Of a stretch of 64,000 bases of DNA, positions 7,639-62,652 are shown in pieces. Location of the stretch: positions 13,280 to 77,279 of IMG/VR virus record IMGVR_UViG_3300033142_000627. The stretch is one strand, 5' to 3'. Made by a program: the position numbers and the translations under genes. The notes under the pieces are model-generated. The model was not told where the DNA came from. It was given only the letters and a program-made list of their open reading frames with translations, and made no database searches. Within the stretch, counting starts at the first letter, position 1. The number at the start of each line of letters is the position of its first letter. Origin of the DNA: a virus (Duplodnaviria; Heunggongvirae; Uroviricota; Caudoviricetes).

Positions 7639-7670
7639 CCATTATACAGGTACCGGTGGGAAAATCAAGC
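7639..7670 (-). promoter_or_regulatory. Early sigma70-type promoter cassette 1 (minus strand TTGATT-16-TATAAT)
   Basis: Plus-strand ccATTATAcagg at 7639-7650 is the reverse complement of the -10 box; aatcaa at 7663-7668 gives the -35. Sits 34 nt upstream of the ORF start at 7605. Confidence 0.6.
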
Positions 7671-7671
7671 G

Positions 7672-7863
7672 TTATTCAGTCTCTTCCTCTGCATCACACG
7701 CCTCTAGGAACGCTTTCCATCGTTCAACCTCGCGGTTGTCAATATCTTTGTGTTCAAACACACCACACTCAATACAAGTAGCAAGGAACTGTTCATCCGA
7801 GATAGAATCGAAGTGTTCATCAATCAATCGTAGTGATTTTTCGTGTATATCTTCTTTACTCAT
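7672..7863 (-). CDS. Hypothetical protein (63 aa)
   Basis: Packed ORF. Confidence 0.35.
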   Translation of the reverse strand: MSKEDIHEKSLRLIDEHFDSISDEQFLATCIECGVFEHKDIDNREVERWKAFLEACDAEEETE

Positions 7864-8045
7864 ACAAATATGTCAACTCGTTTATAGATTGGTTCGGTGC
7901 CAGAAACCCGTTTATTTGGGTTCTTAGGACGATATTCATCAAGTTCAATTGGTGTGAAGTCTCCAGACTTGAACTCTATATATCTATTTAGTTCGAATAT
8001 TCTGGTTGTGTCGATTACATTATTGGTAGATGAAACTGTGGCCAT
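7860..8045 (-). CDS. Hypothetical protein (61 aa)
   Basis: Packed ORF. Confidence 0.35.
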   Translation of the reverse strand: MATVSSTNNVIDTTRIFELNRYIEFKSGDFTPIELDEYRPKNPNKRVSGTEPIYKRVDIFV

Positions 8046-8213
8046 TTGTGTTTCTCACTCTCTTGTATTTGATGCCTTTCCAACCTTTGCAAGGTGTTAT
8101 CTTACCTATCTTCACATCTGGTCCTGTACGGTAATCGTATTTGTCACATAGACCTCCACGAAACCTAGCACCAAGATGTTGATAGTATTTACAGCTGCCG
8201 CAGGATTTACTCA
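8020..8213 (-). CDS. Small Cys-rich protein (about 63 aa; start revised to MSKSCGSCKYY)
   Basis: As listed the ORF overlaps its upstream neighbour by 160 nt. The internal ATG at 8213 gives an ATGA overlap with the stop of 8207-8614. Confidence 0.4.
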
Positions 8214-8614
8214 TCGTTTTCTCTGTAGTAATATTCCCAGTCAAGATCGGCCGTTTGTATTTGTATAGATGTTCCCTCAATATCAGGAATGTCGTGTTTC
8301 TTTCTATTACAAATAACGATACCTTCGCCAACAATTCGCCACTGTTTACTAGGTCTATCACTCTCAATCAATCGATATTTGCACATCAATGGTTTAACAC
8401 ACTCGAATACATTTTTGATAACTTCATTTCTGAATTCAATGTTACTTTCGTGAACCCATATCTTGAAAAACCATCCTTTGTGTTCAATCCATAGATGAAT
8501 ATCTTCGTTGTGTGGAGTGGTCTCTAATTTCCATTTTCCTGTCGGCTTAAGAGGTTTCCAGTCATAACCATAATCAACATCAATTTTTCTGTAGGCTATT
8601 TGATTGATTTTCAT
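8207..8614 (-). CDS. Hypothetical protein (135 aa)
   Basis: Packed ORF. Confidence 0.5.
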   Translation of the reverse strand: MKINQIAYRKIDVDYGYDWKPLKPTGKWKLETTPHNEDIHLWIEHKGWFFKIWVHESNIEFRNEVIKNVFECVKPLMCKYRLIESDRPSKQWRIVGEGIVICNRKKHDIPDIEGTSIQIQTADLDWEYYYRENDE

Positions 8615-9648: not shown

Positions 9649-10094
9649 TTCAATTCAGCCAAAGCACGTTTCAGGCGTAGATAAGATTTGTTGTATTTCT
9701 TGATACGCTCAAAGTCTTTGTCACGTACACCTTTCAAACGTGTGATATCTGAGTTGTGCTCGATGTCTGCCATTTTGATTTTCATGGCAGTTTTGTTACC
9801 AGATTCAATCAAACGATCAATAAAGTCTTCGTATGTCTCACCATCAAGTTTTGACAACAGTACAACAATCTCAACTTCGTCTTTCGTGAATCCTGCCTCG
9901 TTCAACATTAATGCTGTGTAGTGGGTGTCTTCAATGACATCATGCAGAACAGCGGAGATCATTGCAATCTCACCAAGATGTGAGACTTTGTTCATCACCG
10001 TGAGGCAATGCAAGATATATGGCTTTCCGCCGCGGTCTGTTACATCAACAAAGAGTGTCGATGTCAGTGCTATGGCGCGTGATAGTCGTTTCAT
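9642..10094 (-). CDS. HD-domain small alarmone hydrolase-like protein (SpoT/Mesh1-type (p)ppGpp hydrolase fold)
   Basis: H...LHDVIEDT motif (ILHCLTV ... AVLHDVIEDTHYT). About 150 aa from the ATG at 10094, which has an AAGAGAGAA SD. The listed start at 10115 is a GTG. Confidence 0.6.
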   Translation of the reverse strand: MKRLSRAIALTSTLFVDVTDRGGKPYILHCLTVMNKVSHLGEIAMISAVLHDVIEDTHYTALMLNEAGFTKDEVEIVVLLSKLDGETYEDFIDRLIESGNKTAMKIKMADIEHNSDITRLKGVRDKDFERIKKYNKSYLRLKRALAELKC

Positions 10095-10128
10095 TATTTT
10101 GTGTTCTCTCTTCACTCAATCTATGGTT

Positions 10129-10215
10129 CCATTATACAGGTATGGCCACCACCGGCAACCAGCTGACGTAAGTTATTGAAATGATTGTGCTTATATGGGT
10201 ATAAGCAGGGCTTAT
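10129..10215 (-). promoter_or_regulatory. PeSL-like cassette 2: stem-loop, 28-nt box and TTGCCG-16-TATAAT promoter
   Basis: -10 at 10131-10136, -35 at 10153-10158, conserved box at 10167-10194, ATAAGC-AGG-GCTTAT hairpin at 10201-10215. Confidence 0.6.
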
Positions 10216-10430
10216 TTTGCCACCAGAGAGCGGCCAGAATAATTAAATATTGCGCCGTTATTACAAATTGCGCTGAACAACCCACGATAACTAATGGCCT
10301 GAGAAGTAACTTTTCCCACTCCGTTGTTTGTGGAACATTTATCATCAGCATAGTTCCAAGCTTCGCCAGGAACACTCGCTGTACAACCGACCATAAACAG
10401 CAGTGGTACAACTAATAGTAACTTTTTCAT
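10212..10430 (-). CDS. Small lipoprotein (signal peptide MKKLLLVVPLLF, lipobox MVGC)
   Basis: Signal peptide and lipobox Cys. Confidence 0.55.
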   Translation of the reverse strand: MKKLLLVVPLLFMVGCTASVPGEAWNYADDKCSTNNGVGKVTSQAISYRGLFSAICNNGAIFNYSGRSLVAK

Positions 10431-11201: not shown

Positions 11202-11385
11202 TTGATTCGGACTCTTCGTTAGTTTCTTCTTTGGAACCCCAAAATTCTTCGCCCATGCGGACATGACCAAATTCTTTTACATCTTCGCAAGCAGGACAGA
11301 CGCCAAAGTATTCGCCACCACAACCACACACATGAGGGGTTCCGTCACCGGAGAACATCTTAACTACTTCGTATTCTTCTTCCAT
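11191..11385 (-). CDS. Small Cys-rich acidic protein (64 aa)
   Basis: CGCGG...CPAC motif. It is the first gene after cassette 3. Confidence 0.4.
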   Translation of the reverse strand: MEEEYEVVKMFSGDGTPHVCGCGGEYFGVCPACEDVKEFGHVRMGEEFWGSKEETNEESESNGK

Positions 11386-11413
11386 AATCTCTCACTCAAC
11401 TCAATTTATGGTT

Positions 11414-11480
11414 CCATTATACGCAAAAAAAGGGGCCATGTAAAGCCCCTTTCGTAAGTATTTGAAATGATTGTGCTTAT
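11414..11480 (-). promoter_or_regulatory. Cassette 3: conserved 28-nt box, terminator hairpin in place of the -35, and TATAAT -10
   Basis: -10 at 11416-11421, box at 11453-11480. The leader is shared with the other cassettes. Confidence 0.5.
11425..11454. terminator. Rho-independent terminator (GGGGC-N8-GCCCC flanked by A and T runs)
   Basis: aaaaaaaGGGGCcatgtaaaGCCCCtttcg. On the minus strand it follows ORF 11498-12097 and directly abuts a TATAAT box. Confidence 0.7.
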
Positions 11481-11497
11481 GGGTACATCAGCCAGAT

Positions 11498-12097
11498 TTA
11501 TAGGTCTGAGATATCGACCTCATCGATGTGTTGAATCGAACGAATGTGTGTTGGACTATGGTCCAGTTTAGTCAGGATAGTACTTTCTTTAAACACAAAG
11601 GCACGTCCATTGACCTTAGAGAAACCGTCAAGACCAGACTTACCGAACACCGGTTTTCCCAGCTTCGCTGATTTGCGTAGTTTGCCGAATCCTGGCCACG
11701 CATCACCGCACTCGTTTGTGGAAATGGCGTAGTAGTCGCCTCCTTTATCCGCATAAGTGATAGCATCTTGTTCGAACTCAATACCAAGGACAATCAATTC
11801 CTTCTTGAGTTTGCCTGTGTTCTTGAGGTCTGTGACGAAAAATGACTCTTCGTTCACAAGTTTATCTCCAGATTCATACCACGAACCCTGTACCTTGGTG
11901 ACACCAAACCCTCGTTTAAGTAATTTCGCTTTCAGTACCGCATTTCTAGCTTTCTTTGACTTGGTAGTGTACTTCTCACCTGTACCACAATCTTTATTGT
12001 CTCTAAAGGCAGTGATAGTACCTGTGTCGTGTTCTGACCACTGGCGTTGCACCCGCGATAGTGACGACTCACTCAAAAATTCTTTCTTGGTCTTCAT
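11498..12097 (-). CDS. Hypothetical protein (199 aa, Lys/Gly-rich)
   Basis: First ORF after cassette 4. No motif. Confidence 0.5.
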   Translation of the reverse strand: MKTKKEFLSESSLSRVQRQWSEHDTGTITAFRDNKDCGTGEKYTTKSKKARNAVLKAKLLKRGFGVTKVQGSWYESGDKLVNEESFFVTDLKNTGKLKKELIVLGIEFEQDAITYADKGGDYYAISTNECGDAWPGFGKLRKSAKLGKPVFGKSGLDGFSKVNGRAFVFKESTILTKLDHSPTHIRSIQHIDEVDISDL

Positions 12098-12134
12098 ACG
12101 TGTCTCTCTATATAGATTATCTATATTTATTACT

Positions 12135-12211
12135 CCATTATACAGATACCATCCGTGGTGTCAAGACATTGATTATAAAGAGATTTTATTAGGGTATAAG
12201 AAGGACTTATA
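12135..12211 (-). promoter_or_regulatory. PeSL-like cassette 4 (TTGACA-16-TATAAT plus a TATAAG-N5-CTTATA stem-loop)
   Basis: -10 at 12137-12142, -35 at 12159-12164, hairpin at 12195-12211. Confidence 0.6.
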
Positions 12212-16095: not shown

Positions 16096-16099
16096 TGTT

Positions 16100-16130
16100 C
16101 CATTATACAGGTCCGACCAGTGGAGTCAAG
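16100..16130 (-). promoter_or_regulatory. Early promoter cassette 5 (TTGACT-16-TATAAT)
   Basis: -10 at 16102-16107, -35 at 16124-16129, placed 7 nt upstream of the ORF start region. Confidence 0.6.
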
Positions 16131-16132
16131 AG

Positions 16133-20736: not shown

Positions 20737-20931
20737 TTACTTGGCTTTCGCTTGTTTGATAAGACACTTTTTAGAGTTCTCTTTACAATCAGAAAGAGGA
20801 CATTTGAAACACAACTTTTCAAGGTCGGTCAACTCATAAGAAACATTATCACGAATCTTGTTACCATCTTCGTCATACTTAGGGTAGTTGCCGTAGATAG
20901 GGTCTGTTTGAATATTAATATAATCGTTCAT
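20737..20931 (-). CDS. Hypothetical protein (64 aa from the MNDYINIQ start)
   Basis: ATG at 20931 with a GAGAGA SD. The listed 20958 start is a TTG. Confidence 0.4.
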   Translation of the reverse strand: MNDYINIQTDPIYGNYPKYDEDGNKIRDNVSYELTDLEKLCFKCPLSDCKENSKKCLIKQAKAK

Positions 20932-20970
20932 GTTTTTAATCTCTCTCTCTTTTCTCAATCAATACGGATC

Positions 20971-21039
20971 ATTATACAGGTATCTCACCCAATGACAACC
21001 ATTATTTTCGATTTTACCACTGAATGTTTCTATAGTGGT
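20971..21039 (-). promoter_or_regulatory. PeSL-like cassette 6 (TTGTCA-16-TATAAT plus an ACCACT/AGTGGT stem-loop)
   Basis: -10 at 20971-20976, -35 at 20993-20998, hairpin at 21016-21039. Confidence 0.55.
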
Positions 21040-21050
21040 ATAAATTCTGC

Positions 21051-22038: not shown

Positions 22039-22068
22039 CTTTTCTCTCACTCAACTCAATTTAGGTGT

Positions 22069-22155
22069 CCATTATACAGGTATGTGGAACACCGGCAACC
22101 AGCTAACGTAAGTATTTGAAATGATTGTGCTTATGGGCGTATAAGAAGAACTTAT
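22069..22155 (-). promoter_or_regulatory. PeSL-like cassette 7 (stem-loop, 28-nt box, TTGCCG-16-TATAAT)
   Basis: -10 at 22071-22076, -35 at 22093-22098, box at 22107-22134, ATAAG-N5-CTTAT hairpin at 22141-22155. Confidence 0.6.
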
Positions 22156-22376
22156 GTCTTCTCCCTGACATCATTCTGATTGACCACTCTCATTTCTGTA
22201 CGGTCAGAGATATCATCATAAAAACTTATGTAGTATTCATCTGGGTCGGTGTATGTATCAAGAATCTCACAGTCAACATAGAAAGAAGCGGCCATTACTG
22301 ACCATAGATATTCGTATTGTTTGTCCATATTATCTTCTCTTTGTTGGTTCAGTTTTGAAAGCATACTTGTGACCAA
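22152..22376 (-). CDS. Hypothetical acidic protein (74 aa)
   Basis: Packed ORF. Confidence 0.4.
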   Translation of the reverse strand: MVTSMLSKLNQQREDNMDKQYEYLWSVMAASFYVDCEILDTYTDPDEYYISFYDDISDRTEMRVVNQNDVREKT

Positions 22377-23799: not shown

Positions 23800-24001
23800 A
23801 GTATTTGATCGTTCTCTTAATAAAGTGTTTGTTAATCCACTCTTGCGCCGAAGATTCGCTGTAACTAATCATTGATGTTGGATTCTGTCCGGGTATATAT
23901 ACTACCTGAATATTTTCCCACCACCATAGAACTTTCTTTTGGGGGTAAAAACTACTGTCGCCGTTTCCATCAACAATCTTTTTAATTCTGTATTTACTCA
24001 T
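23789..24001 (-). CDS. Hypothetical protein (70 aa)
   Basis: Packed ORF. Confidence 0.4.
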   Translation of the reverse strand: MSKYRIKKIVDGNGDSSFYPQKKVLWWWENIQVVYIPGQNPTSMISYSESSAQEWINKHFIKRTIKYYDV

Positions 24002-24311
24002 CTTCGTATTTGATACTGATGTTGTAGTTCATTAAATCTGAATCAGGCATAGAAAATCCTGATGTCACCTCTGTGCCATCTCCGCACCAAATTGGTGTAG
24101 GCATTTCCCACGGCGCGGGTACCAGACCTGGTCCATAGAAATCGTTTTTAGGAGGATAATTAGGAAAGATTGGTGTATAGTCTTTCACAATTACAGGTTC
24201 AATCACCGGTTTCAATGCATAGAAGATTGTCTTCCACTCCTCATATGATAATGTAATCTCTTTACCATCATCATCAATGGTGATTGTAATTTCTTTAATG
24301 CCTTTATTCAT
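23994..24311 (-). CDS. Hypothetical protein (105 aa)
   Basis: Packed ORF. Confidence 0.45.
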   Translation of the reverse strand: MNKGIKEITITIDDDGKEITLSYEEWKTIFYALKPVIEPVIVKDYTPIFPNYPPKNDFYGPGLVPAPWEMPTPIWCGDGTEVTSGFSMPDSDLMNYNISIKYEDE

Positions 24312-26709: not shown

Positions 26710-26736
26710 TCACTATCTCCAACTCAATTTATGGTC

Positions 26737-26766
26737 CCATTATACAGGTGTGACCAATGGAGTCAA
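26737..26766 (-). promoter_or_regulatory. Early promoter cassette 8 (TTGACT-16-TATAAT)
   Basis: -10 at 26739-26744, -35 at 26761-26766, with the conserved leader. Confidence 0.6.
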
Positions 26767-26935
26767 CCACTTATGCACAAAAGTTTTCTATATGGTCATT
26801 AAACTGGCTTATTGTCTTTCTGCCGTTGCTTTATGACTCTTCTGAGTGTTGCCAACTTCTCATCGATGATTGGGTCCATCTTTTTGAATATCTCAGCAAT
26901 CGCCTCTGATATTGATTGTTTTTCTTTATCGTTAC

Positions 26936-29768: not shown

Positions 29769-29857
29769 AATATAGTTTTACCTTCTTTAATTTAAGTGAA
29801 TTTAAAGGCGTCACTTGTCACCTGTAGATACCATTATTACATATCAGATAGGTGATG

Positions 29858-30097
29858 TCAAGAGTTTCTTGTATCCTGTTTCTCATTCCAAGGATTGACG
29901 CCAGGACGTGTCACGGAACCATTATTCTTGATGTCCGCCCATGACCAATCCTCAGCGCCATTAACATGGAGTGTGAAGGAAATCTCTCCCTCAGGCAACT
30001 CAGGATGTTTCGTGTCGGCCAGAATCTTTTGGACCGCCTCTGATATTTCTCGTTTTTGTTGTATTGAAAACATTAGCAATACACCGCGTTTTCCCAC
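29858..30097 (-). CDS. Hypothetical protein (79 aa)
   Basis: Packed ORF. Confidence 0.4.
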   Translation of the reverse strand: MGKRGVLLMFSIQQKREISEAVQKILADTKHPELPEGEISFTLHVNGAEDWSWADIKNNGSVTRPGVNPWNEKQDTRNS

Positions 30098-30759: not shown

Positions 30760-31080
30760 TTAACCTCTCAATGAATGTATAAACTCATCGCCTTTTGGAG
30801 ACAAGTACAATTTTTTAGTTTTTGTGTCATACTCTGTCCAACCCATTTTCGCAATCGCGCCAAACGTGTGTGACAAATATCCCGGACGATTCTCACGACC
30901 CAAGACATTTTTTAACAATTCTGTTTTACTTTGCGGACCCGACTCAAGGCCTTCGACCAGTCGAGCATAGATAGTTTTAGTACCATCAGATTTAACAGGA
31001 CTATTACAAGCATATCCTGACCATCTACATAGTGTATTTACACTCATTTGATTTCTCCATCTGTGTTCAGTACGTTCCAA
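30760..31080 (-). CDS. Hypothetical protein (106 aa)
   Basis: Packed ORF. Confidence 0.45.
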   Translation of the reverse strand: MERTEHRWRNQMSVNTLCRWSGYACNSPVKSDGTKTIYARLVEGLESGPQSKTELLKNVLGRENRPGYLSHTFGAIAKMGWTEYDTKTKKLYLSPKGDEFIHSLRG

Positions 31081-31340
31081 ACTTCATCACGTTCAGCGAC
31101 AAGTTCATCAATTCGGTCATCTAACCGTTCAAGTTGATCGAGAGCGTTCTTTTCGAATTTCTTAATCCATTTCGACCACTCGCCGACATCAGAGGTGCAA
31201 TTATTCTTACCAGCCAAACACTTACCGTTTTTAACCAAGTAATATCGAGCATGACGAATTCCATTATAAACAGAATAACCATCTTGTTCAAACACCAATT
31301 CATAATTCTCATTAGGAGTAAACGCGCCGAATTTACTCAT
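31044..31340 (-). CDS. Hypothetical protein (start revised to MSKFGAF)
   Basis: The listed start at 31352 is a GTG. An ATG lies at 31340. Confidence 0.4.
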   Translation of the reverse strand: MSKFGAFTPNENYELVFEQDGYSVYNGIRHARYYLVKNGKCLAGKNNCTSDVGEWSKWIKKFEKNALDQLERLDDRIDELVAERDEVWNVLNTDGEIK

Positions 31341-31342
31341 GA

Positions 31343-31495
31343 TTAAGCCCACCCAAACATAAATTTAAAACGGAAAATCTTAATACCGAAAAATGTATTA
31401 ACAGTACTACCCTTAATAAGGTTCATCTCCTCTAAACGCAAGTACTTCCAACCTATGAAGCTAGATTTCATTGTCACATCATTTAATGGTTGCAT
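31343..31495 (-). CDS. Small protein (about 50 aa)
   Basis: Hand-translated ORF. First gene after cassette 9. Confidence 0.3.
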   Translation of the reverse strand: MQPLNDVTMKSSFIGWKYLRLEEMNLIKGSTVNTFFGIKIFRFKFMFGWA

Positions 31496-31526
31496 CTCGT
31501 TTTCTCTCTCAACTCAATTTATACGT

Positions 31527-31592
31527 CCATTATACAGGTATTGGTACCACCGGCAACCAGCCAGCGTAAGTATTTGAAATGATTGTGCTTAT
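31527..31592 (-). promoter_or_regulatory. Cassette 9 (28-nt box plus TTGCCG-16-TATAAT)
   Basis: -10 at 31529-31534, -35 at 31551-31556, box at 31565-31592. Confidence 0.6.
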
Positions 31593-31672
31593 CTGCACAT
31601 TAGTCCAGTTTATGGAGCGCCAGACACTAAAATGACGCCACAAGGGCGCCACATTAGCGAGAGAGTCGTTAT

Positions 31673-32599: not shown

Positions 32600-32947
32600 T
32601 TACTTAGTTTTAGATTTAAAATCGTCAGCAGCATCAACTTTTGCGGCTTCACGTTTTTCTTTGGTGTAACGTTGGTCAACAGAAGGAACAAACTCTTTCT
32701 GTTCGGCCGGAACACTCTCAAAGGTAGAACGTTGGTAGTTTGTGGCGCGTGTATCAGTCAGTTTGATAGGCACAAACAATAGTAGTGCTACAGTGATACC
32801 AACAGCGATGAATTCCCAAGTCTTATAGGTTGGTGTTTCCATCTCAAAGATTGCTTCTTTGTTTCTACGGAAGAATGTGTAGAAAGCGACAAACATCGGC
32901 GATAGTTTCAGCAACTTAATTAAAATTGCTAGTCCTACGATTTCCAT
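32600..32947 (-). CDS. Membrane protein (115 aa)
   Basis: Two TM helices. Confidence 0.45.
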   Translation of the reverse strand: MEIVGLAILIKLLKLSPMFVAFYTFFRRNKEAIFEMETPTYKTWEFIAVGITVALLLFVPIKLTDTRATNYQRSTFESVPAEQKEFVPSVDQRYTKEKREAAKVDAADDFKSKTK

Positions 32948-33210
32948 TATTTGGTTTCTCCATTCAGAACAATGCCAATATCTTCCGCGATAACTCGTTG
33001 CGAGGCATCACGTACCAACATAGAACCGTCAAATACATTGACAATACTAACGCGGGAATCTTTTACAGTACTACAAACCATCCAGAATAGGTCCTCTTTG
33101 ATCGCATCTTCACGCGACATATGGGCAAATCTGAATGTGTTGCCTTGGTCTATCGTGTTAAGGGCGACAGAACTTTCAAGAACCTCGGTAGAGGATATTT
33201 GGCGTTTCAT
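32947..33210 (-). CDS. Hypothetical protein (87 aa)
   Basis: Packed ORF. Confidence 0.4.
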   Translation of the reverse strand: MKRQISSTEVLESSVALNTIDQGNTFRFAHMSREDAIKEDLFWMVCSTVKDSRVSIVNVFDGSMLVRDASQRVIAEDIGIVLNGETK

Positions 33211-33375
33211 AATATATGTTTTCTCTCTTTTTCAAATTAACAGACTCCATCATATCAACCCAGACTACGGATGTCAAGACAAATGGGAATATAGTTTTTA
33301 ATAAATAAAGGTACGAATACAGGAGATGCTGAAACATCTCCTCCACTCTAATCACAACTTAATGGTACTTAAGCA

Positions 33376-34038
33376 ATGACTACATCTATTTATACGCACT
33401 ATACATATTTAATAACCAATACAACTTCTAATAAAATGTATATTGGTCTACGTTCTTGTGTGGGTCCGGCCGAAGATGACCCATATATGGGATCATCCCA
33501 CGATAAAAAATTTAAAAAGCTTCTCTCAGATAAACCAAAAATATTCACAAAGATTATTATTGGATTATGGCCAAGTAGAAATCTGGCAGCTGCTCATGAG
33601 ATATGGTTACATGGTTATTATAATGTTGCGACAAACCCATTATATTACAATAAGTGTAACGCTATTGGTTCTGGGTTTAGTATGTTAGGTGTAAAAACAT
33701 CACCAGAGACAAAATTAAAACAAAGTTTATCCTCTATAGGACAAGAAAGAAGTGCTGAGTATAGAAAAAACATCAGCAAAGCTAAAATCGGTTCTCGTAA
33801 TCCGTTATTTAAAGGATGGTGTATACATAATGGAACAAAATATACACCTGTTGAATTATCTAAACATTTAGGTCACAAAATAACAAGAGGATGTTGTGAT
33901 AAATGGTGTAAAAATAACAATAGTGTTATATCAATTTATACGTATATCAACTCCCATTACCTACAATCATTAGGACCATCAGAATCATTGATAGGCAAAA
34001 CATTCGAACAGTTAGGATTTTCTTTCGAATTCGTTTAA
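33376..34038 (+). CDS. GIY-YIG homing endonuclease (Seg-like, with NUMOD-type DNA-binding repeats)
   Basis: YTYLITNTTSNKMYIG is a GIY-YIG motif. EYRKNISKAKIGSRNP is NUMOD3-like. It is the only plus-strand gene in a minus-strand array. Confidence 0.75.
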   Translation: MTTSIYTHYTYLITNTTSNKMYIGLRSCVGPAEDDPYMGSSHDKKFKKLLSDKPKIFTKIIIGLWPSRNLAAAHEIWLHGYYNVATNPLYYNKCNAIGSGFSMLGVKTSPETKLKQSLSSIGQERSAEYRKNISKAKIGSRNPLFKGWCIHNGTKYTPVELSKHLGHKITRGCCDKWCKNNNSVISIYTYINSHYLQSLGPSESLIGKTFEQLGFSFEFV

Positions 34039-37591: not shown

Positions 37592-37621
37592 AATCTCTCT
37601 CTGTTTATTAGTCGATATACA

Positions 37622-37695
37622 CCATTATACAGGTATCATTGGGAGAGTCAAGAGTTTACGTAAGTGGTTGATTTTGCATAGTATTTCTATGCAAA
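37622..37695 (-). promoter_or_regulatory. PeSL-like cassette 10 (TTGACT-16-TATAAT plus a 9-bp stem-loop TTTGCATAG/CTATGCAAA)
   Basis: -10 at 37624-37629, -35 at 37646-37651, hairpin at 37673-37695 that contains the stop codon of the upstream gene. Confidence 0.6.
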
Positions 37696-38768: not shown

Positions 38769-38844
38769 AATCTTTCTCCAAGTTCATAATATAATGTATT
38801 TCATCAACGACCATTATCACATATCATGGCACTTTTGTCAAGAC

Positions 38845-38872
38845 AATAAAAAAGGGACCGAAGTCCCTTTCT
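38845..38872. terminator. Rho-independent terminator (GGGAC-CGAA-GTCCC with A and T flanks)
   Basis: aaaaaagggaccgaagtccctttct. Same hairpin family as the terminator at 764-790. Confidence 0.75.
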
Positions 38873-38890: not shown

Positions 38891-39358
38891 TTAAAAATAA
38901 GCTTTATCGATTGCTGCGTAGTCATTGAACTTCATTGCCTCAGCAATATCTGCATCATCAACAGTCCTATTAGACATTTGGCTAGCAAGTCGCGCATACT
39001 TGGCACCTTTAAGACGCATTTTCTTAATCTTGTTCATTCTCGATGGAACACCTTTTTGAACAACCGCTGGAGCAGGTTCTTCTGTCTTTTCATTTGGAGC
39101 GCCGGTTTCGGTGGTTGTATCCTCGGTGATGTCTTCTTCCGTTTTAACCTCTTCGTCAACAGGTGTTGCAACTTCCGGTCCATCTGTTAAATCAGTATCT
39201 TCTGTTATTGGGTCTTCATCTTGAGTTTCTTCTACAGCAGTCTCTTCAACTACTGGAGTTTCTTCTACAACAGTCTCTTCAACCACTGGAGTCTCTACAA
39301 CTTCTTTCTTAACGGCAGCCTTAGTTGCCGATTTCTTTGTGCTTTTTCTTGCTGCCAT
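38891..39358 (-). CDS. Lys-rich N-terminus / acidic-repeat protein (155 aa), possibly histone-like or an internal protein
   Basis: KKSATKAAVKK N-terminus followed by repeats of the form PVVEETVVEET. Confidence 0.5.
   Translation of the reverse strand: MAARKSTKKSATKAAVKKEVVETPVVEETVVEETPVVEETAVEETQDEDPITEDTDLTDGPEVATPVDEEVKTEEDITEDTTTETGAPNEKTEEPAPAVVQKGVPSRMNKIKKMRLKGAKYARLASQMSNRTVDDADIAEAMKFNDYAAIDKAYF
39223..39304. repeat. 33-bp tandem repeat (about 2.5 copies) encoding the 11-aa unit PVVEET(V/A)VEET
   Basis: Adjacent near-identical 33-nt units inside ORF 38891-39358. Confidence 0.6.
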
Positions 39359-49589: not shown

Positions 49590-49627
49590 TAACATTATCA
49601 AACACTTTAGTCAAGAGAATATCTAAA

Positions 49628-56940: not shown

Positions 56941-58023
56941 CTACCTTATCATTTGTATGTCGTCTGTATGTATATTATCCAAAGACCATACTTCAAGGTC
57001 CTTTTTTAATCTATCCTCAGAACGAAGTTTTTCCCAACGCTTTACAGATTTCTTTTTCCATATCGATATCATCTCTTCGCTAGATTTACTGATATTGTTA
57101 CAGTAATAGTAATTCTTCTTGGTTGTTATATTAGACTTCGTTTTTATCATATTAGAGAATTCATGGTATTTATCTATATCATGATGTTTTAATGAATTCT
57201 TTATTGTCCTGATAAGGCCATTAAATCTCTTTGTCTTTACTGAACTTGAGTTGACCGTTATGTTGACAACATGATTACCTTCATTCTCGGATTTGATGAT
57301 AATTGTTAACTTTTTGATAACATCATCAGAAGGGTACATCATCAGGTTTGAATCAGTTCTTACCTTAGACCTCTTTATAATGGGTTTAAGTCCATCGTAT
57401 TGAGAAGACTGTTTAATGGAACCATATAGACTGGTCGTTTCGAAGTATTGTATATCAGTGTCATACTTGTTGTTGAAACGGTCTCTTATGTCTGTAGATG
57501 CCGCTATTAGTGCAAGTAGTTTGCCGCCGAGATAGTTAAAACCAAACGGTTGAACCGGCACGATTACGATGCCATTATAGAAGGTACGGTTCAATTCTTC
57601 TGGTTTTATGACATAATCCAACATCGTGTTACGAGGTTTCATATTGATTGTCGGGGAAGACATCTTAATAAAACCTAATAACTTTTTCGTGTTGTTCTCC
57701 CACACCTTAACACACAATGACCGACCCGGAGTGGGCCCGACGACAAACGACGAAACGTATTGTAACTGATTATAATACTCTCTGTTCTCTGGTGTATACT
57801 CTAATCTAATGTCCATATCCATTGGAGACATATCATAATCATTAAAATATATATCAGAATACATGTGATTACCAAAAATGTCATAGGATTCCATATCTAA
57901 TAACTTGATTCCTTTTCTAATTCTTTGGTATTGTTCTATATCAGTAATATCAGCGTAAGCATCCATTAATATATCATAACACCTAAGTGTGTTACGTTCG
58001 GACAATATTAGTTTATCTACCAT
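56941..58023 (-). CDS. Unknown-function protein, paralogue A of a tandem pair (360 aa)
   Basis: About 60% identical by eye to ORF 58344-59570 over the whole length. Confidence 0.55.
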   Translation of the reverse strand: MVDKLILSERNTLRCYDILMDAYADITDIEQYQRIRKGIKLLDMESYDIFGNHMYSDIYFNDYDMSPMDMDIRLEYTPENREYYNQLQYVSSFVVGPTPGRSLCVKVWENNTKKLLGFIKMSSPTINMKPRNTMLDYVIKPEELNRTFYNGIVIVPVQPFGFNYLGGKLLALIAASTDIRDRFNNKYDTDIQYFETTSLYGSIKQSSQYDGLKPIIKRSKVRTDSNLMMYPSDDVIKKLTIIIKSENEGNHVVNITVNSSSVKTKRFNGLIRTIKNSLKHHDIDKYHEFSNMIKTKSNITTKKNYYYCNNISKSSEEMISIWKKKSVKRWEKLRSEDRLKKDLEVWSLDNIHTDDIQMIR

Positions 58024-58339: not shown

Positions 58340-58343
58340 AGTA

Positions 58344-59570
58344 TTACCTTATCATCTGAATTTTGTCACCAAGAACCGTATCTAGATCCCAAATCTCAAG
58401 TTCTGTACGAATTCTATCATCGGCTGCAAGATTGTCATATCGTCTTTGTGCCTTGCGTTTCCACCAAACAACCATTTCTTCAACGCTCTTATTAATGTTG
58501 TTGCAGTAATAGTAATTCTTTTTGGTAGTAATCTCCTTCTTCACAGCAAGGAACTCTTTCAAGTGGTCGTGTTTCTCCATATCATGTACCTTTAGAGAAG
58601 CATATAGACGCGAGAACATACCGTTCATTCGTTTCAACTTGACAGAACCACTATTTGCCTCTACGGCGTGTTGACCATTATTCTCGCTCTTGAAGATTAA
58701 CGCCATCTTTCCGAGAACTTCATCGGATGGGTACATCATAAGATTTGAATCTGTTTGTGCCTTACAACGGCGAATCATAGGTTTCAGACCGTCATACTGT
58801 GAAGACTGTTTGATTGATCCATATAAGCTGGTTGTTTCAAATGTCTGAATGTCAGTACCATATTTCTTATTGAACATATCACGTACATCAGTTGAAGCAG
58901 CGATTAACGCCATCAGTTTACCACCAAGGGCATTATAACCGAATGGTTGTACAGGTACAAGAATGATACCGTTATAGAACGTGCGATTCAATTCTTCGGG
59001 TTCAACGATTCTATCCATCATCACATTACGAGGTTTCATATTGAGAGTAGGTGAACCCAACTTCATAAATCCAAGTGTCTTGCCTGTGTTCGCCTCAACA
59101 GCGCGTAGGTGCAAGGTACGACCCGGTGACGGTACAATCGCCATAGAGGACACTACTTGTATCTGTTCATAGAAATCTCTTGAGGAGAGTTCTTCCACGC
59201 GGATTTCCATATCATCTGGACGCATATCATAGTCATTAAACAGAATATCGTCATACCATTCCGTACCATCGATAGACTGTGAAGAACCGGTCTTCATCAA
59301 CATCTCAAGTTTACGGAATCTCTGATATGATTCAATGTCGTGAAAGTTTGAGTAGTAGTCAATAAGAAGTTTATAACAGGCAATTGCCTTATCCTTAGGG
59401 AGAATCAACATCTCGCCTTCTTTTCTATCAGATTCGAATAACGCCTGTGGTTTTTCTGGTTGGTCCGGTTCTTTGTCCGGACGTTTGAACTTTCCTACTG
59501 TACTCTCTTTCTCAACGGCAAGGTCTTCGCCGAATAAATCTTGTGAACTCATAATATTTCCCATAATCAA
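58344..59570 (-). CDS. Unknown-function protein, paralogue B of the tandem pair (408 aa)
   Basis: Shares the blocks NRTFYNGI..VPVQPFG.N.LGGKL.ALIAAST and TKKNYYYCNNI with paralogue A. Extra 48-aa N-terminus. Confidence 0.55.
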   Translation of the reverse strand: MIMGNIMSSQDLFGEDLAVEKESTVGKFKRPDKEPDQPEKPQALFESDRKEGEMLILPKDKAIACYKLLIDYYSNFHDIESYQRFRKLEMLMKTGSSQSIDGTEWYDDILFNDYDMRPDDMEIRVEELSSRDFYEQIQVVSSMAIVPSPGRTLHLRAVEANTGKTLGFMKLGSPTLNMKPRNVMMDRIVEPEELNRTFYNGIILVPVQPFGYNALGGKLMALIAASTDVRDMFNKKYGTDIQTFETTSLYGSIKQSSQYDGLKPMIRRCKAQTDSNLMMYPSDEVLGKMALIFKSENNGQHAVEANSGSVKLKRMNGMFSRLYASLKVHDMEKHDHLKEFLAVKKEITTKKNYYYCNNINKSVEEMVVWWKRKAQRRYDNLAADDRIRTELEIWDLDTVLGDKIQMIR

Positions 59571-59603
59571 TTTATACCATTATATAGTAAGCGAACGTAT
59601 TTA

Positions 59604-59858
59604 TCAAGACATTCTTCGTTCAAACTCTGGAAAAGATGTTTTTCCGAAACCAGTAAACTTGTAATCTCTATGAAATGCGATCTTTGCTCTTTTGGTCATA
59701 GGTATAACAAGTTTCTCCATATGAAACGCCGGATTGAATCCTGGTTCCTCGGATGTGAACTCCTGTTCGGCCTCATTAGGTCGTAACAAATAAAATGCCA
59801 CGACCGGAACCGTGTGGAGTTGATTAATCTGTTTTTTAAACATATCATATAGTGTCAT
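59604..59858 (-). CDS. Hypothetical protein (84 aa)
   Basis: Packed ORF. Confidence 0.4.
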   Translation of the reverse strand: MTLYDMFKKQINQLHTVPVVAFYLLRPNEAEQEFTSEEPGFNPAFHMEKLVIPMTKRAKIAFHRDYKFTGFGKTSFPEFERRMS

Positions 59859-59866
59859 AATATCTC

Positions 59867-61300
59867 CTAAACTATAAAGTCATCAAAAGGATTTCCGTCC
59901 TTCTTATTATCACCGAACATCAATTCCTGTCCAGCACCAAATGTTGGTTTATCCGCTATGGTTTTCCCATCAGTAGTTGAGGCACCCATCATCGTACCGG
60001 CAGTATCATCAAGGTCATAGAATCGCATCTGTTTGAAATCAACACCACACATAAACTTATTGGTGCTGGATATATCATAGAAACGGTTCTTCAACTGTTT
60101 GAACATCACCTTGCCCTGTTCGCGTAGCTCTTCTGTAGAAATCATACCAAAGAAAGTATCAACAGTATGTAATAGACCGGCTGATTCTGATACATCAGAC
60201 ATTTCCATATCAGAGGCATTTAGTCCACCACGATTAACCTGTGTAGCACTAACAATAGGACAATTATTCTCAATTGCGAATCCACGAAGTTCTTCTGCGA
60301 TACTCTTAACAAGTGTGTACGAGTTTGCGCCTTTTGCTGCACGACTTGAAGAACAAATATTAAGGTAATCGATAAAGATAATATCAGGCACAAAGTTCTG
60401 TTTGGTCTTTAGTTCTCTAACAAGATGTCTAAAGTGACCAACATGTGCCGATGTGGTAGGATATTCCTTAATCATCAATCGACCAGCGCACTTCTCTTTT
60501 ACATCTTCGACCTGTTTGAGATACTTGTCTCTATCGATGCCGTGTAGTTTATTAAGGTCGACCTCTAAGAGATTGGCGTCGATACGTTCACCAATTCTTT
60601 CTTCGGCCAACTCTAATGAGATGTATAGAACATTCTTGCCCTGTAAATACAACTGACTACCGATATGAATCATAATGGCAGACTTACCAGAACCGGCTCC
60701 GCCCATGAAAACATTCAATGTCTTGTCAACAAAACCACCACGGGTTACCTTATCAAGATAGTGTAGACCAGTGGCCAATCTATCTTCTTTCAGGTGTAAC
60801 AAATCGTAACGCGCATCAGCATCATTGATATAGTCGTGACCTACAGAACTATCAAACGAAACACTCAAGGCATCTTGTAGCAGTTCAGGTATGGCACCTT
60901 TGTCCATATCTTTCTTCTCACCATTGATAATGGCGATAGCAGTTTCAACAGACCTGTGAACGGCACGTTCAGAACAGAATTTCTCCGTTTCGTCCCTTAA
61001 CCATTCTGAATTAGGTTTTTCTTCCGTAATGATTCTATACGAATCGAGTCTTGTTACTATTTCTTTGTATTCATCTTCGGTAATATTTTTACGGTCACCT
61101 ACCTGTACAATGATAGACTCTATTGTAGGTACATCATTATACTTTTCAAAGAAGCCTTTGTATTCTTCAAAGATAACCCTATATTGATCATCAGAGTAAT
61201 ATTCATCCTTTAGATACGGTAGAACATCTCTTACATAGGCGCTATCAACGAATAGATTCTTGAATAGTACATCTTCAAAATCTATATCAATCAATAACAC
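59867..61300 (-). CDS. 41: Replicative DNA helicase gp41 (DnaB family)
   Basis: Walker A GGAGSGKS. The N-terminus aligns with T4 gp41. GTG start preceded by an AAGGAGA SD. Confidence 0.9.
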   Translation of the reverse strand: MLLIDIDFEDVLFKNLFVDSAYVRDVLPYLKDEYYSDDQYRVIFEEYKGFFEKYNDVPTIESIIVQVGDRKNITEDEYKEIVTRLDSYRIITEEKPNSEWLRDETEKFCSERAVHRSVETAIAIINGEKKDMDKGAIPELLQDALSVSFDSSVGHDYINDADARYDLLHLKEDRLATGLHYLDKVTRGGFVDKTLNVFMGGAGSGKSAIMIHIGSQLYLQGKNVLYISLELAEERIGERIDANLLEVDLNKLHGIDRDKYLKQVEDVKEKCAGRLMIKEYPTTSAHVGHFRHLVRELKTKQNFVPDIIFIDYLNICSSSRAAKGANSYTLVKSIAEELRGFAIENNCPIVSATQVNRGGLNASDMEMSDVSESAGLLHTVDTFFGMISTEELREQGKVMFKQLKNRFYDISSTNKFMCGVDFKQMRFYDLDDTAGTMMGASTTDGKTIADKPTFGAGQELMFGDNKKDGNPFDDFIV

Positions 61301-61556
61301 TCTCCTTGGTCATAGATTCTAACTCAGAGATTATTCCGTTTGTGAAATTTGTTACAATCTCGCTGACCTCTTCTTTAATATTTTCGGGGATTTCAATCGC
61401 AATAGATTTGTCCCTCTCTACTAGTCCGTATTCGGCATTAACCGCGTACTGGCCAGTTTCGTCAGGTTCCTCGGAGAAGGACACATTAGTAATAACAACA
61501 TCAAAGTCATCACCAAATGCAATAACAACTTGTTTCATTTTATCACTCATCGTCAT
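61287..61556 (-). CDS. Small acidic protein in the gene-40-equivalent position
   Basis: Lies between uvsX and 41 as T4 gene 40 does. No motif; start uncertain. Confidence 0.35.
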   Translation of the reverse strand: MTMSDKMKQVVIAFGDDFDVVITNVSFSEEPDETGQYAVNAEYGLVERDKSIAIEIPENIKEEVSEIVTNFTNGIISELESMTKESVID

Positions 61557-62586
61557 CCTCCTGCAACATTTTGATTTGTGCAACCTTGTATTTTTCTTCT
61601 ATCGCCTTGGTGAAGTTTGTCTTCTCTAAGATAGGCATCCAGAAATCGGGAGTGTTCGTGTCCTTTGCGCGCCAGTTTTTGTCCTCTTGAACAACTCCAT
61701 CAGCATCAGGAATAATTCTTGTATACCAACCAACTTTTGGTTTCTCCACAAATCCCATTTCGGTAGCAATATCTAATAGACCAGACCATTTAGAGATGCC
61801 GCCTTCATATGTAACGGTGATAGGCAGTTTTGATTTCTCTTTAACGAAACGTGACTTCTCGATATTGATTGTAAAGTTATAACCAACAATTTCTTTGCCT
61901 TCTTTCTGTTGAGACTTGCCTACCATCAATACAGTATTGGCAGAGTACATTGCACCAGTACCACCAGACATCACCTGTTTACTGAACATCTCAATCGTTT
62001 GATATGAGTGGTTCACAGCAACCATTGGGATATCAAGCTTGGTTAGATATGGAGTCACCATTCTGAATAGAGACTTCAATTGTTTTGCGCGGGTCATATC
62101 GGCAACGGACTTTCCTTCAAGAGCATCATCAACTTCTTTCTTAGATGCAAGGTTACCGATAGAGTCAATGAAGATGAATACATTATCACTCTTCTTGAGA
62201 CTATCAAGTTGTTTCATAATGTCCTGTTTCAGTTCTTCGATGTTCATAATAGGAACATGGATAACTCGGTCAGAGTCGATACCGAATGAATCAAAATAGT
62301 CCTTAGATGCACCAAACTCTGAATCATAGAATAGAATAACAGAGTCTTTCACTTCATCAAGATAGGCCTTTGCCATGATGAGCGCGTATGCAGTTTTAAA
62401 GTGACGGGAAGGTCCTACAACGAATGTTAAGCCAGATGACAGACCTCCGTCAAGGGAACCACTAAGGGCAACATTCAATAACGGTACAGATGTTCGTACC
62501 ACGGTAGTTTTCATAAATGACGAATGAGTTAGCAACTCGGATTCTTTGATGGTACTATTTTTGATCAGTTGTTCCAATATACTCAT
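61543..62586 (-). CDS. uvsX: UvsX recombinase (RecA-like)
   Basis: PLLNVALSGSLDGGLSSGL, FYDSEFG, FIDSIGNLASKKE and DMTRAKQLKSLFR are near-identical to T4 UvsX blocks. Confidence 0.95.
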   Translation of the reverse strand: MSILEQLIKNSTIKESELLTHSSFMKTTVVRTSVPLLNVALSGSLDGGLSSGLTFVVGPSRHFKTAYALIMAKAYLDEVKDSVILFYDSEFGASKDYFDSFGIDSDRVIHVPIMNIEELKQDIMKQLDSLKKSDNVFIFIDSIGNLASKKEVDDALEGKSVADMTRAKQLKSLFRMVTPYLTKLDIPMVAVNHSYQTIEMFSKQVMSGGTGAMYSANTVLMVGKSQQKEGKEIVGYNFTINIEKSRFVKEKSKLPITVTYEGGISKWSGLLDIATEMGFVEKPKVGWYTRIIPDADGVVQEDKNWRAKDTNTPDFWMPILEKTNFTKAIEEKYKVAQIKMLQEDDDE

Positions 62587-62623
62587 AGATTCTCCTGGCG
62601 TTAAGTATTAGTTTCGTTTGTCC

Positions 62624-62652
62624 ATTATAAGGTACCAGACCTTGAAAGTCAA
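62624..62652 (-). promoter_or_regulatory. Early promoter cassette 11 upstream of uvsX (TTGACT-17-TATAAT)
   Basis: -10 at 62624-62629, -35 at 62647-62652, placed 38 nt upstream of the uvsX ATG. Confidence 0.6.

Follow-up and report, generated by a model that had tools for sequence, protein, structure and literature searches.

A family of putative sigma-70 early promoters with reassorted modules in an uncultured T4-like phage

Genomic Context

The element described here is a short intergenic cassette that recurs along the minus strand of a 64,000-nt stretch of viral DNA (the window; positions 13,280 to 77,279 of the IMG/VR record IMGVR_UViG_3300033142_000627). By conservative open reading frame (ORF) cover, 94.2% of the window is coding and 5.8% non-coding, and its minus-strand genes include those for UvsX (61543–62586), a gp41-type helicase (59867–61300), primase, NrdA, RNA ligase 1 (Rnl1) and DNA ligase. 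No nucleotide match to catalogued phages was found by Megablast with 20 kb of the window. UvsX was at most 60% identical to that of any catalogued phage, the best matches being Acidovorax phage ACP17 and T4-like phages of Cronobacter, Stenotrophomonas and Acinetobacter, and the JGI metagenomes 3300033143, 3300033153 and 3300033155 contain sequence that matches the window at 99.8% identity or more. The T4-type gene set, the UvsX identity and the metagenome strain sequence therefore identify the window as part of an uncultured, divergent T4-like (Straboviridae) phage. A scan of the window detected no Rfam family, and the DNA ligase used as a query found no relatives among viral contigs. The 13 copies of the cassette are very probably sigma-70 early promoters of this phage, filling the gaps on the coding strand.

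The Promoter Family

A preliminary description, made from the sequence alone, had listed 11 sites between 7639 and 62652 as copies of one motif. On extraction of the minus strand, a perfect TATAAT was found at all 11; nine sites read CCTGTATAATG(G/A), while site 12135 reads TCTGTATAATGG, with one mismatch (TCTGTATAAT), and sites 11414 (GCGTATAATGG) and 62622 (ACCTTATAATGG) are variants that have only TATAATGG in common with the family. A listing of TATAAT occurrences and a generic sigma-70 scan, which agreed with the −35 hexamers and 16–17-nt spacers first given, added two members with TATAAT at 59584–59579 and 5252–5247, of the form AATGTCTTGA(T/C)A-N17-TATAATGG. The copies first listed are thus real, and the family, now of 13 members in the window (one per 4.9 kb), reaches below the coordinate at which the list began.

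The plus-strand 11-mer ATTATACAGGT (ACCTGTATAAT on the minus strand) occurred nine times exactly and three times with one mismatch, compared with 1.7 occurrences expected from shuffles at up to one mismatch, and all nine exact copies were found in one orientation (minus, coding). The string TTG-N19-TATAATGG was matched eight times (0.03 expected) and TTG-N20-TATAATGG four times (0.07 expected), all on the minus strand, giving 12 matches to the composite −35/−10 pattern against about 0.1 expected; one of them, at 31261–31291, falls within an ORF and does not belong to the family. TATAATGG itself occurred 16 times on the minus strand and three times on the plus strand. A profile hidden Markov model built from the 13 copies recovered the two added members by construction, found one extra sequence at 29872–29824 (E 0.004) and found no significant plus-strand copy in the window. 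Equal frequency of the motif within ORFs or on the other strand, which the preliminary description had named as contrary to its reading, was therefore not found: 12 of the 13 −10 boxes fall within the 5.8% of non-coding DNA, and the only ORF over the −10 box of copy 10136 is a spurious one with a TTG start, overlapping a real gene. The distance from −10 box to gene start is mostly 26–39 nt (29–39 nt in 8 of the 13), with GAG-rich or GAGAG-type ribosome sites before the ATG, and most copies head runs of packed ORFs of 50–150 amino acids without Pfam hits. The description of the cassettes as sigma-70-type promoters on the coding strand, placed in gaps that head gene blocks and in one case before uvsX, was borne out.

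The match at 31261–31291 (minus strand, TTGAAC-N17-TATAATGG, within ORF 31044–31352) could have arisen by chance or could act as an internal promoter.

Cassette Anatomy and Modules

Anchored on TATAAT, the consensus reads ..taCCTG-TATAAT-GGa. All 13 copies carry a TTGAC-like hexamer, located 16 nt upstream in nine and 17 nt upstream in four; the −35 box is TTGAC(T/A), or TTGCCG in three copies, and the spacer of 16–17 bp ends in ACC. The long form, repeat D1 (115 nt), was found at 10102–10216, 22042–22156 (the reference) and 31500–31614, with a further copy at 11388–11501, the copies being 80–82% identical to the reference. It starts at the stop codon that closes the preceding gene and stops a few bases short of the following ATG (4 nt for 22042–22156) and, since its ends are the boundaries of the flanking ORFs, the repeated unit is the whole intergenic region.

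The modules were compared over 24 copies, the 13 of the window and 11 from the related contigs described below. The 5′ edge has the form ATAAG-N4-5-(G)CTTAT(A)-N4-6-ATA(A/T)(G/A), with the upstream stop codon TAA in the first arm. It is followed by an upstream module of 25–30 nt, of which four types were distinguished: A (GCACAATCATTTCAAATACTTACG), B (ATAGAAACATTCAGTG(C/G)TAAA), C (ATAAAATCTTTTCATATCAATAA) and D (ATATAGAAAACTT(A/T)TGTGCATAA). The leaders are purine-rich, of the general forms ATAAATTGAG(T)TGAGnGAGAG or GATTGAGAAAAGAGAGAG, and were sorted into L1 (GGnnnCATAAATTGAG(T)TGAG), L2 (GATCCGTAYYGATTGAGAAAAGAGAGAG), L3 (..ACTAATA..) and others. The single conserved leader reported earlier (GGAACCATAAATTGAGTTGAGnGAGAG) holds for 5 of the 11 sites, the others carrying different leaders: L1 occurs in 11421, 22076, 31534, 26744 and 10136, the second type in 20976, only the first part in 59584, and the remaining copies differ.

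TTGCCG is common to all three long type-A cassettes (10153–10158, 22093–22098 and 31551–31556), whereas the four related-contig copies with the same GGTG-type spacer (two A, one B and one C) all have TTGACG. This split suggests, at the level of sequence, a concerted change (gene conversion) among dispersed copies.

Three other assignments were considered and rejected. A MotA-dependent middle promoter was discarded on the TTGAC-like hexamers found at −35 in all copies and on the lack of TGCTT at −30. Elements like miniature inverted-repeat transposable elements or repetitive extragenic palindromes were ruled out by the strict orientation, the fixed distance to the start codon and the −35 box. 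A stem-loop enclosing the −10 box (an extension of CC..GG) reached at least five pairs in only 3 of the 13 copies (7646, 5252 and 37629) and is not a feature of the family.

Stem-Loops and the Upstream Region

For each promoter, the 60–115 nt upstream were folded and z scores were taken against shuffled sequence. Terminator-grade hairpins were found in 3 of the 13 copies (z −2.7 to −3.6): that of 62629 reads CCCUGC-UUCG-GCAGGG followed by U5 (z −2.9); that of 11421, AAAGGGGC..GCCCCUUU followed by a U-run (z −3.6), lies inside the spacer with a −35-like TTTACA in its loop; and that of 31534 (z −2.7) has only a modest U tract. Moderate hairpins lacking a U-run were found in 37629 (9 bp), 20976 (7 bp) and 10136 (8 bp), while the folds of 22076, 12142, 26744, 16107, 7646, 5252 and 59584 were no better than shuffled sequence. 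Apart from the terminator-grade copies, three members have short AU hairpins whose stability does not exceed that of shuffled sequence, and five of the 13 copies have no hairpin worth naming. The hairpins quoted in the preliminary description do exist, at 10201, 12196 and 22141 and at about 21016 and 37673. The first three are the only occurrences in the window of the palindrome ATAAG-N5-CTTAT, which is short and AU-rich. A classical UP element or AT-rich tract is not evident in the cassettes.

Related Contigs and Module Reassortment

No meaningful blastn hits were obtained with the cassette as query, and a literature search for the motif strings returned unrelated primer sequences only. A scan of viral contigs with 19 nt of the type-A module led to IMGVR_UViG_3300033142_000461 and 3300033143_001371, two records of a single sequence, one from each of two samples. 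Of this related contig, some 44 kb was recovered. It matches the window only at the cassettes, with 68–91% identity, and shares no ORFs with it; at least nine further cassette copies were found in these 44 kb. ORFs read by eye include homologues of gp20, gp21, gp23, uvsW, gp55, gp47 and gp46, a core set complementary to that of the window. The samples are 3300033143, also the source of one JGI contig of the window, and a sister sample. Tetranucleotide correlation with the window was 0.90–0.93 for the related contig, compared with 0.88 between parts of that contig and 0.29–0.68 for other T4-like loci; walking off both ends of the window gave no overlap with it. Composition, co-occurrence and complementary genes make it most likely that the related contig belongs to the same genome as the window. 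When metagenomes at large were scanned with the type-A 19-mer, 26 matches were obtained, all of which were set aside as chance matches with neither the rest of the module nor a promoter.

Four strain contigs from sister metagenomes (L039, L066, L067 and L077), which cover about 36 kb of the window at 99.8% identity or more, were collinear with it. The sole strain indel is a 98-bp segment at 23978–24076, present in the window and in Ga0366829_1000715 and missing from L067 (3300033155); it lies within small ORFs, away from the cassettes. T4-like loci with UvsX 53–58% identical gave no cassette hits, and the sequence family is therefore lineage-specific.

Among the 24 copies, upstream types A, B and D were each found paired with both L1 and L2. 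Type A occurs with L1 in 31534, 22076, 11421 and R1_17213 and with L2 in R1_14565 and R2_14938; type B occurs with L2 in 20976 and R1_14055 and with L1 in R2_13815; and type D occurs with L1 in 26744 and with L2 in R3_3748. Two copies illustrate the mosaic: R2_13815 has a type-B upstream module and a leader that equals the first 28 nt of that of the type-A copy 31534, while R2_14938 joins a type-A upstream module to the leader of the type-B copy 20976. For several pairs of types, each of the four possible combinations is present, which calls for exchange between the upstream and leader halves, within the −35 to −10 core. As read from these sequences, the pattern implies that the cassette modules have been reassorted by recombination among copies; movement of genes is a separate claim.

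The layout was also sought more widely with the pattern GTATAATGG-N5-TAAATTGAG, which was found in 36 stretches of viral contigs, all with a −35-like box upstream and all but two (L009 and L030) with a ribosome site and start codon within about 30 nt downstream. Several of these stretches are T4-like; one of them, L006, has homologues of gp46, uvsW and cobT, with the promoter between gp46 and the cobT-like gene. Two contigs, L014 (3300014050_001238) and L038 (3300023174_000134), belong to an unrelated uncultured phage with its own multi-copy cassette, GGGCTTGAC(T/A)-N-GGTTCGTGTATAATGG with leaders ATAAATTGAG or TTGTTGAGTTGATAAAAG, which parallels the family of the window.

Individual Cassettes and Neighboring Genes

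The uvsX cassette (62587–62728; as with all the following, on the minus strand) has −35 TTGACT at 62652–62647, a 17-nt spacer, TATAAT at 62629–62624 and the ATG at 62586, and its terminator, the hairpin AACCCTGC-TTCG-GCAGGGTT plus T5, lies at about 62664–62688. The tRNA-like appearance of 62690–62729 on the plus strand was supported neither by ARAGORN nor by Rfam. Cassette 59584 (59553–59628; −35 TTGATA at 59607–59602, 17-nt spacer, TATAAT 59584–59579, followed by GGTATAAATTG) heads the first gene of a pair of adjacent paralogues and stands immediately upstream of it. The two paralogues (56941–58023 and 58344–59570, minus strand; about 360 and 402 amino acids) are about 70% identical over 399 nt; both match phrog_19197, and the first has a Pfam DruA domain hit (PF14236, Druantia defence protein) in the JGI annotation. 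Cassette 37629 (37592–37686) comprises the 9-bp hairpin TTTGCATAG-N5-CTATGCAAA, −35 TTGACT at 37651–37646, CCTGTATAATGG and the ATG at 37591.

The type-A cassette 31534 (31496–31672) has its hairpin at 31652–31632, the upstream module ATAAGCACAATCATTTCAAATACTTACG, −35 TTGCCG at 31556–31551, TATAAT at 31534–31529, the leader CGTATAAATTGAGTTGAGAGAG and the ATG at 31495. Cassette 26744, of type D (26710–26798), has −35 TTGACT at 26766–26761, TATAAT at 26744–26739, leader CCATAAATTGAGTTGGAG and ATG at 26709. The type-A cassette 22076 (22039–22156) fills its entire gap, with the stop codon inside ATAAG-N5-CTTAT-N6-ATAAG, −35 TTGCCG at 22098–22093, TATAAT at 22076–22071, leader CCTAAATTGAGTTGAGTGAGAG and ATG at 22038. 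In cassette 20976, of type B (20932–21050), a 7-bp hairpin (ACCACTA..TAGTGGT) is followed by −35 TTGTCA at 20998–20993, TATAAT at 20976–20971, the type 2 leader GATCCGTATTGATTGAGAAAAGAGAGAGAG and the ATG at 20931. Cassette 16107 (16096–16132) is compact and adjoins the upstream ORF, with −35 TTGACT at 16129–16124 and TATAAT at 16107–16102. An in-frame ATG (16095) lies only 6 nt past this TATAAT, and a transcript starting there would be leaderless; the start given by JGI for this gene, 16050, lies within a hairpin and has no obvious ribosome site.

Cassette 12142 (12098–12210) stands upstream of the SAM lyase gene and consists of the stop-codon hairpin TATAAG-N5-CTTATA, −35 TTGACA at 12164–12159, TCTGTATAAT at 12142–12137, AATAAATA 6 nt past the −10 box and the ATG at 12097. 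Downstream of the same gene is the type-A cassette 11421 (11386–11501), in which the G/C hairpin AAAGGGGC-N6-GCCCCTTT plus a T-run fills the spacer, with TTTACA in its loop, followed by TATAAT at 11421–11416, the leader CCATAAATTGAGTTGAGTGAGAG and the ATG at 11385. The SAM lyase gene (11498–12097, minus strand; 199 amino acids), annotated with PF23780 (S-AdoMet lyase) and a candidate for an anti-restriction function, thus forms a single-gene unit between cassette 12142 upstream and cassette 11421, with its terminator, downstream. The type-A cassette 10136 (10095–10215) has −35 TTGCCG at 10158–10153, TATAAT at 10136–10131, ATG at 10094 and two alternative hairpins, ATAAGC-CCT-GCTTAT and GCTTATA-CCCA-TATAAGC. 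Cassette 7646 (7606–7671) has −35 TTGATT at 7668–7663, TATAAT at 7646–7641 between GTACC and GGTAC, a downstream box TATAAATA at 7628–7621 and ATG at 7605. In cassette 5252 (5216–5279), with −35 TTGACA at 5275–5270, a 17-nt spacer, TATAAT at 5252–5247 and ATG at 5215, the inverted repeat GTGTCC/GGACAC encloses TATAAT.

Four more intergenic minus-strand promoters, of the form (c/g)TCTTGACA-N17-(TGn)(G/T/A)AT(A/G)ATGG, were found at 38841, 33277, 29861 and 3735, and a fifth at 49614. The first (38813–38872), which lacks the CCTG signature, has a terminator, AGAAAGGGAC-TTCG-GTCCCTTTTT (z −3.9), followed directly by TTGACA-N17-(TGt)GATAATGG; the second (33249–33277) reads TTGACA-N17-(TGa)TATGATGG with a strong hairpin upstream; the third (29833–29861) reads TTGACA-N17-(TGt)AATAATGG in an intergenic gap (profile E 0.0038); and the fourth (3707–3735) reads TTGACA-N17-TACAATGG with an ATG 23 nt downstream. 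In all, the window has about 17–18 early-type promoters, roughly one per 3.6 kb, of which the CCTG class is the best-conserved subset. The first four of these additional promoters were among the top minus-strand hits of the generic scan, which showed no surplus of weak sigma-70 matches.

Other features of the window lie apart from the cassettes. A homing-endonuclease-like gene (phrog_314; 33376–34038, plus strand) is set inside the minus-strand array, with ATAAATA at 33301 upstream and a strong hairpin at about 33305–33350 between it and the neighboring minus-strand gene (32947–33210). Plus-strand genes form a block at 49.1–53.4 kb, which likewise has ATAAATA ahead of it. At the left edge, a large plus-strand gene with a weak tape-measure-like hit enters the window with its 3′ end alone (1–765), and past it lies a strong minus-strand terminator at 789–768; the IMG/VR contig 3300033155_000281 (locus L080) reaches 3.4 kb beyond this edge. 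Finally, a 33-nt tandem duplication, 91% identical, was found at 39220–39285 within ORF 38891–39358.

Comparison with Known Systems

The cassettes had been likened in the preliminary description to promoter-early stem-loop (PeSL) elements, present at an unusually high density. PeSLs consist of an upstream stop codon, an AT-rich tract, a near-consensus sigma-70 promoter, a stem-loop in one of five positions, a Shine-Dalgarno (SD) sequence and an ATG; they are conserved over about 100 bp, lie mostly in hyperplastic regions and number 51 and 52 per genome in RB49 and phi1, respectively (Arbiol et al. 2010, PMC2839356). The likeness to RB49 and phi1 PeSLs extends to the near-consensus sigma-70 promoter and to the intergenic, multi-copy placement, mostly ahead of small unknown ORFs; like RB49 PeSLs, copy 11421 also has a G/C hairpin and T-run in its spacer. 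It extends only in part to the stem-loops and not to the AT-rich tract: RB49 PeSLs mostly have GGGG..CCCC stem-loops and an A/T-rich tract before the −35 box, whereas strong hairpins occur in 3 of the 13 window copies and the AT content is near background. No specific sequence similarity was found either, RB49 PeSLs scoring against the cassette profile (nhmmer) at E 0.002–0.09, the level of generic promoters (an example being TTGACA-GGGGATCggtGATCCCC-TATAAT). The density is lower than in RB49, not unusually high: 13 per 64 kb, or 17–18 with all early-type promoters, compared with 51 in the 164 kb of the RB49 record, that is, one per 4.9 kb against one per 3.2 kb.

The PeSLs of T4/PST and KVP40/nt-1 resemble the cassettes in having a stem and promoter consensus specific to the lineage and an SD sequence and ATG at the 3′ end (Comeau et al. 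2014, PMC4122927). In these phages the stem-loop is placed immediately ahead of the promoter; some elements, as among the cassettes, are "half" or degraded (PMC4122927). The −35 box is TTTACW in T4/PST and TTGYVH in nt-1/KVP40, compared with TTGAC(T/A) in the window, and the stems are AGNA..TCNT or A3-4G3..C3T3-4, compared with the ATAAG..CTTAT of the window, which contains the upstream stop codon (PMC4122927).

These likenesses raise the possibility that the cassettes are true PeSLs in the sense of Arbiol et al., that is, terminator-promoter units serving mainly as portable recombination linkers that, by excision and insertion of mini-circles, move single genes or small gene blocks within and between co-infecting phages. 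The cassette is a unit of about 100 nt from stop codon to ATG, with many direct copies ahead of small unknown ORFs; the SAM lyase gene (11498–12097) forms a one-gene module with cassettes on both sides and an RB49-like hairpin in the downstream spacer; and the modules are reassorted with a junction in the promoter core, the zone to which the mini-circle junctions of RB49 were mapped (PMC2839356). The scarcity of terminator-grade hairpins (3 of 13, with five copies lacking any worth naming), the absence of an AT-rich tract, the collinearity of the four strain contigs over about 36 kb, with a lone 98-bp deletion away from the cassettes, and the failure of ligase and UvsX searches to find a close yet distinct relative that would show cassette-bounded gain or loss make such a role doubtful, though it deserves to be kept in view ahead of the other alternatives.

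A parallel to the promoter layout was found in T5, which belongs to an unrelated family (Demerecviridae). The PN25 sequence is present at 100% identity in T5 records, where it is annotated as "putative early promoter T5P33" and "repeat c copy 6" (AY587007). It reads CTGTATAAT-AGATTC-ATAAATTTGAGAGAGGAG, that is, CTG-TATAAT-AGATTC-ATAAATTTGAGAGAGGAG..ATG; neighboring T5 early promoters read TATAAT-N6-ATAGTTTGAAAG and TATAAT-N6-ATAAATTAATGAGAG, and cassette 11421 reads GCG-TATAAT-GGAACC-ATAAATTGAGTTGAGTGAGAG..ATG. T5 early promoters thus share with the cassettes CTG-TATAAT and a discriminator of 6 nt, then an A start followed by ATAAATT(T)GAG; the leader behind these is again purine-rich and includes an SD sequence. 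They too form a repeated family that heads early gene blocks, some with terminators in front. They differ in the −35 box (TTGCTT), a very AT-rich spacer, an UP element and the lack of common upstream modules. At N25, the G at −5 of the 6-bp discriminator binds sigma region 1.2 and prolongs the life of the open complex, and a purine-rich initial transcribed sequence aids escape, while a pyrimidine-rich one cripples it (PMC12464699). The T5 discriminator is AGATTC, with a G at −5 only, compared with GGnnnC in the window. The −35 box of T4 early promoters is GTTTAC-like, comparable to the TTTACW of the T4/PST PeSLs.

T4 early promoters are over-specified, with an "uber" UP/−35/TGn/−10 arrangement and a consensus that extends beyond the canonical elements (Hinton 2010, PMC2988021). 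Like the cassettes as read here, they are very strong sigma-70 promoters for immediate takeover of the host polymerase; their TGn is canonical, at −15 to −13, and they possess UP elements (PMC2988021), whereas in the window copies the −35 box is host-like (TTGAC), the TG is displaced by one base and an UP element is not obvious.

Candidate Late Promoters

All five plus-strand occurrences of ATAAATA in the window (33301, 48969, 49582, 50168 and 52167) closely precede plus-strand genes, and ATAAATA was also found ahead of gp22 in the related contig (R1 2808). Judging from these positions, NATAAATA is probably the late promoter of the phage. T4-type late promoters consist of a TATAAATA / NATAAATA box some 20–75 nt ahead of the gene and have no −35 box. 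Similar strings follow the −10 boxes: ATAAAT(A/T) lies within 15 nt past TATAAT in 8 of the 13 cassettes, with (C/T)ATAAATTG in five and (T/A)ATAAATA in two. The (C/T)ATAAATT(G) found 5–6 nt past the −10 box might accordingly be a gp55-dependent late promoter (consensus NATAAATA) stacked on the early one, giving early and late transcription; the same explanation would cover cassette 7646, with its perfect TATAAATA, and cassette 12142, with its perfect AATAAATA. The base before TAAATTGAG was also A in 36 of 36 environmental matches, though the pattern had left it free. This stacking is nevertheless unlikely. The same ATAAATTTGAG follows the −10 box in T5 early promoters. T5 is not known to have a T4-type late sigma factor, and the requirements of sigma-70 for start and initial transcription would explain the motif. 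The final base in the cassettes is T, compared with A at every candidate late promoter in the window, and the copies are homologous, so that the 8 of 13 are not independent events.

Interpretation

We conclude from the comparison that the "leader" belongs to a putative high-output sigma-70 promoter, of which it comprises the start site, the initial transcribed region and the ribosome site, and that its conservation reflects function plus recent copying. A full copy begins with a stop codon, often in an AU-rich hairpin (at times with a third arm, ATAAG) or, in three copies, with a real terminator, followed by the upstream module of 25–30 nt, the −35 box, the spacer, TG-TATAAT-GG, a putative A start about 7 nt past the −10 box, the leader with its ribosome site and the ATG. 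Host sigma-70 RNA polymerase would fire the cassettes immediately after infection; the GG past the −10 box would supply the G at −5 that stabilizes open complexes, the purine-rich initial transcribed region would favor escape, as at T5 PN25, and the terminators, where present, would insulate adjacent units. The cassettes, as near-identical direct repeats of 60–115 nt every few kb, would recombine among themselves, which would account for the occurrence of modules in every combination.

Several observations weigh against this interpretation. The TG of the CCTG class abuts TATAAT at −14/−13 and does not occupy the canonical extended −10 position at −15/−14; an extended −10 (TGn) is absent from this class and present in the separate promoters 38841, 33277 and 29861. 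The −35 box is poor (TTGCCG) in three copies, and the AT content at −59 to −38 averages 66%, compared with 61% for the window, exceeding 75% in one copy only. No cassette-bounded indels were found across the four strain contigs, and the extra copies used in the argument for a mosaic come from contigs of unproven relation to the genome, which share no genes with the window. What the sequence itself shows is the anatomy, the strand and intergenic bias, the enrichment, the mosaicism and the likeness to T5 early promoters; where transcription starts, how early and how strongly the promoters fire and whether they help to shuffle genes are inferred from it. Finally, ACCTGTATAATGG is near-invariant beyond what sigma-70 needs, which could be explained by recent copying or gene conversion or by an extra bound factor.

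The last of these would apply if the ACCTGTATAATGG core or ATAAG-N5-CTTAT were primarily the binding site of a phage or host protein, with the likeness to a promoter secondary; the candidates would be an early-shutoff repressor or, for the TTTCAAATACTTA of the type-A module, a DNA bender like IHF. Besides the conservation of the core past the needs of sigma-70, this is favored by the confinement of the 15-bp palindrome ATAAG-N5-CTTAT to the 5′ edges of cassettes (three in the window and three in the related contigs) and by the type-A module, which by our own reading departs by one mismatch from the IHF consensus WATCAANNNNTTR. On the other side, the −35 and −10 boxes, their spacing and orientation and the distance to the start codon are all as in a plain promoter, most copies lack the palindrome, a candidate binding protein was not identified and recent copying could also explain the conservation, which makes a primary binding site very improbable.

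Equally improbable is a self-contained, recombination-active regulatory module with two functions beyond that of a promoter: the 5′ edge (ATAAG-N5-CTTAT-N4-6-ATAAG), whose first arm contains the upstream stop codon, would fold into either of two mutually exclusive hairpins, according to whether a ribosome terminates there, and a late-type promoter (NATAAAT) in the 3′ half would be stacked on the early one. This reading is based on the recurrence of the three-arm motif at cassette edges in both the window and the related contigs and on the ATAAAT(A/T) past the −10 box in 8 of the 13 copies. If it were true, ribosome termination at the 5′ edge would couple upstream translation to read-through or RNA stability, and any gene behind such a cassette would be insulated and expressed throughout infection.

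Significance

As sigma-70 early promoters, the cassettes are an already described kind of regulatory element, functionally analogous to PeSLs and to the early promoters of T5 and T4, in which the reassortment of modules is clear. This family leaves the knowledge of PeSL-type cassettes unchanged and adds a lineage with a weak stem-loop part and visibly reassorted modules. The 13 cassettes and the four or five related promoters provide a map of transcription units for an otherwise unannotated uncultured phage, flagging the small genes that are likely to be expressed first, including the SAM lyase gene and the paralogue pair with the DruA hit; such genes are candidates for functions in host takeover or anti-defence. 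The layout of TG-TATAAT-GG, A start, ATAAATTGAG and purine-rich leader is shared by this phage, T5 and many uncultured phages, of which several are T4-like. Its recurrence suggests a shared optimum for the capture of sigma-70 polymerase, and searches for early promoters in metagenomic phage contigs could employ the layout as a pattern.

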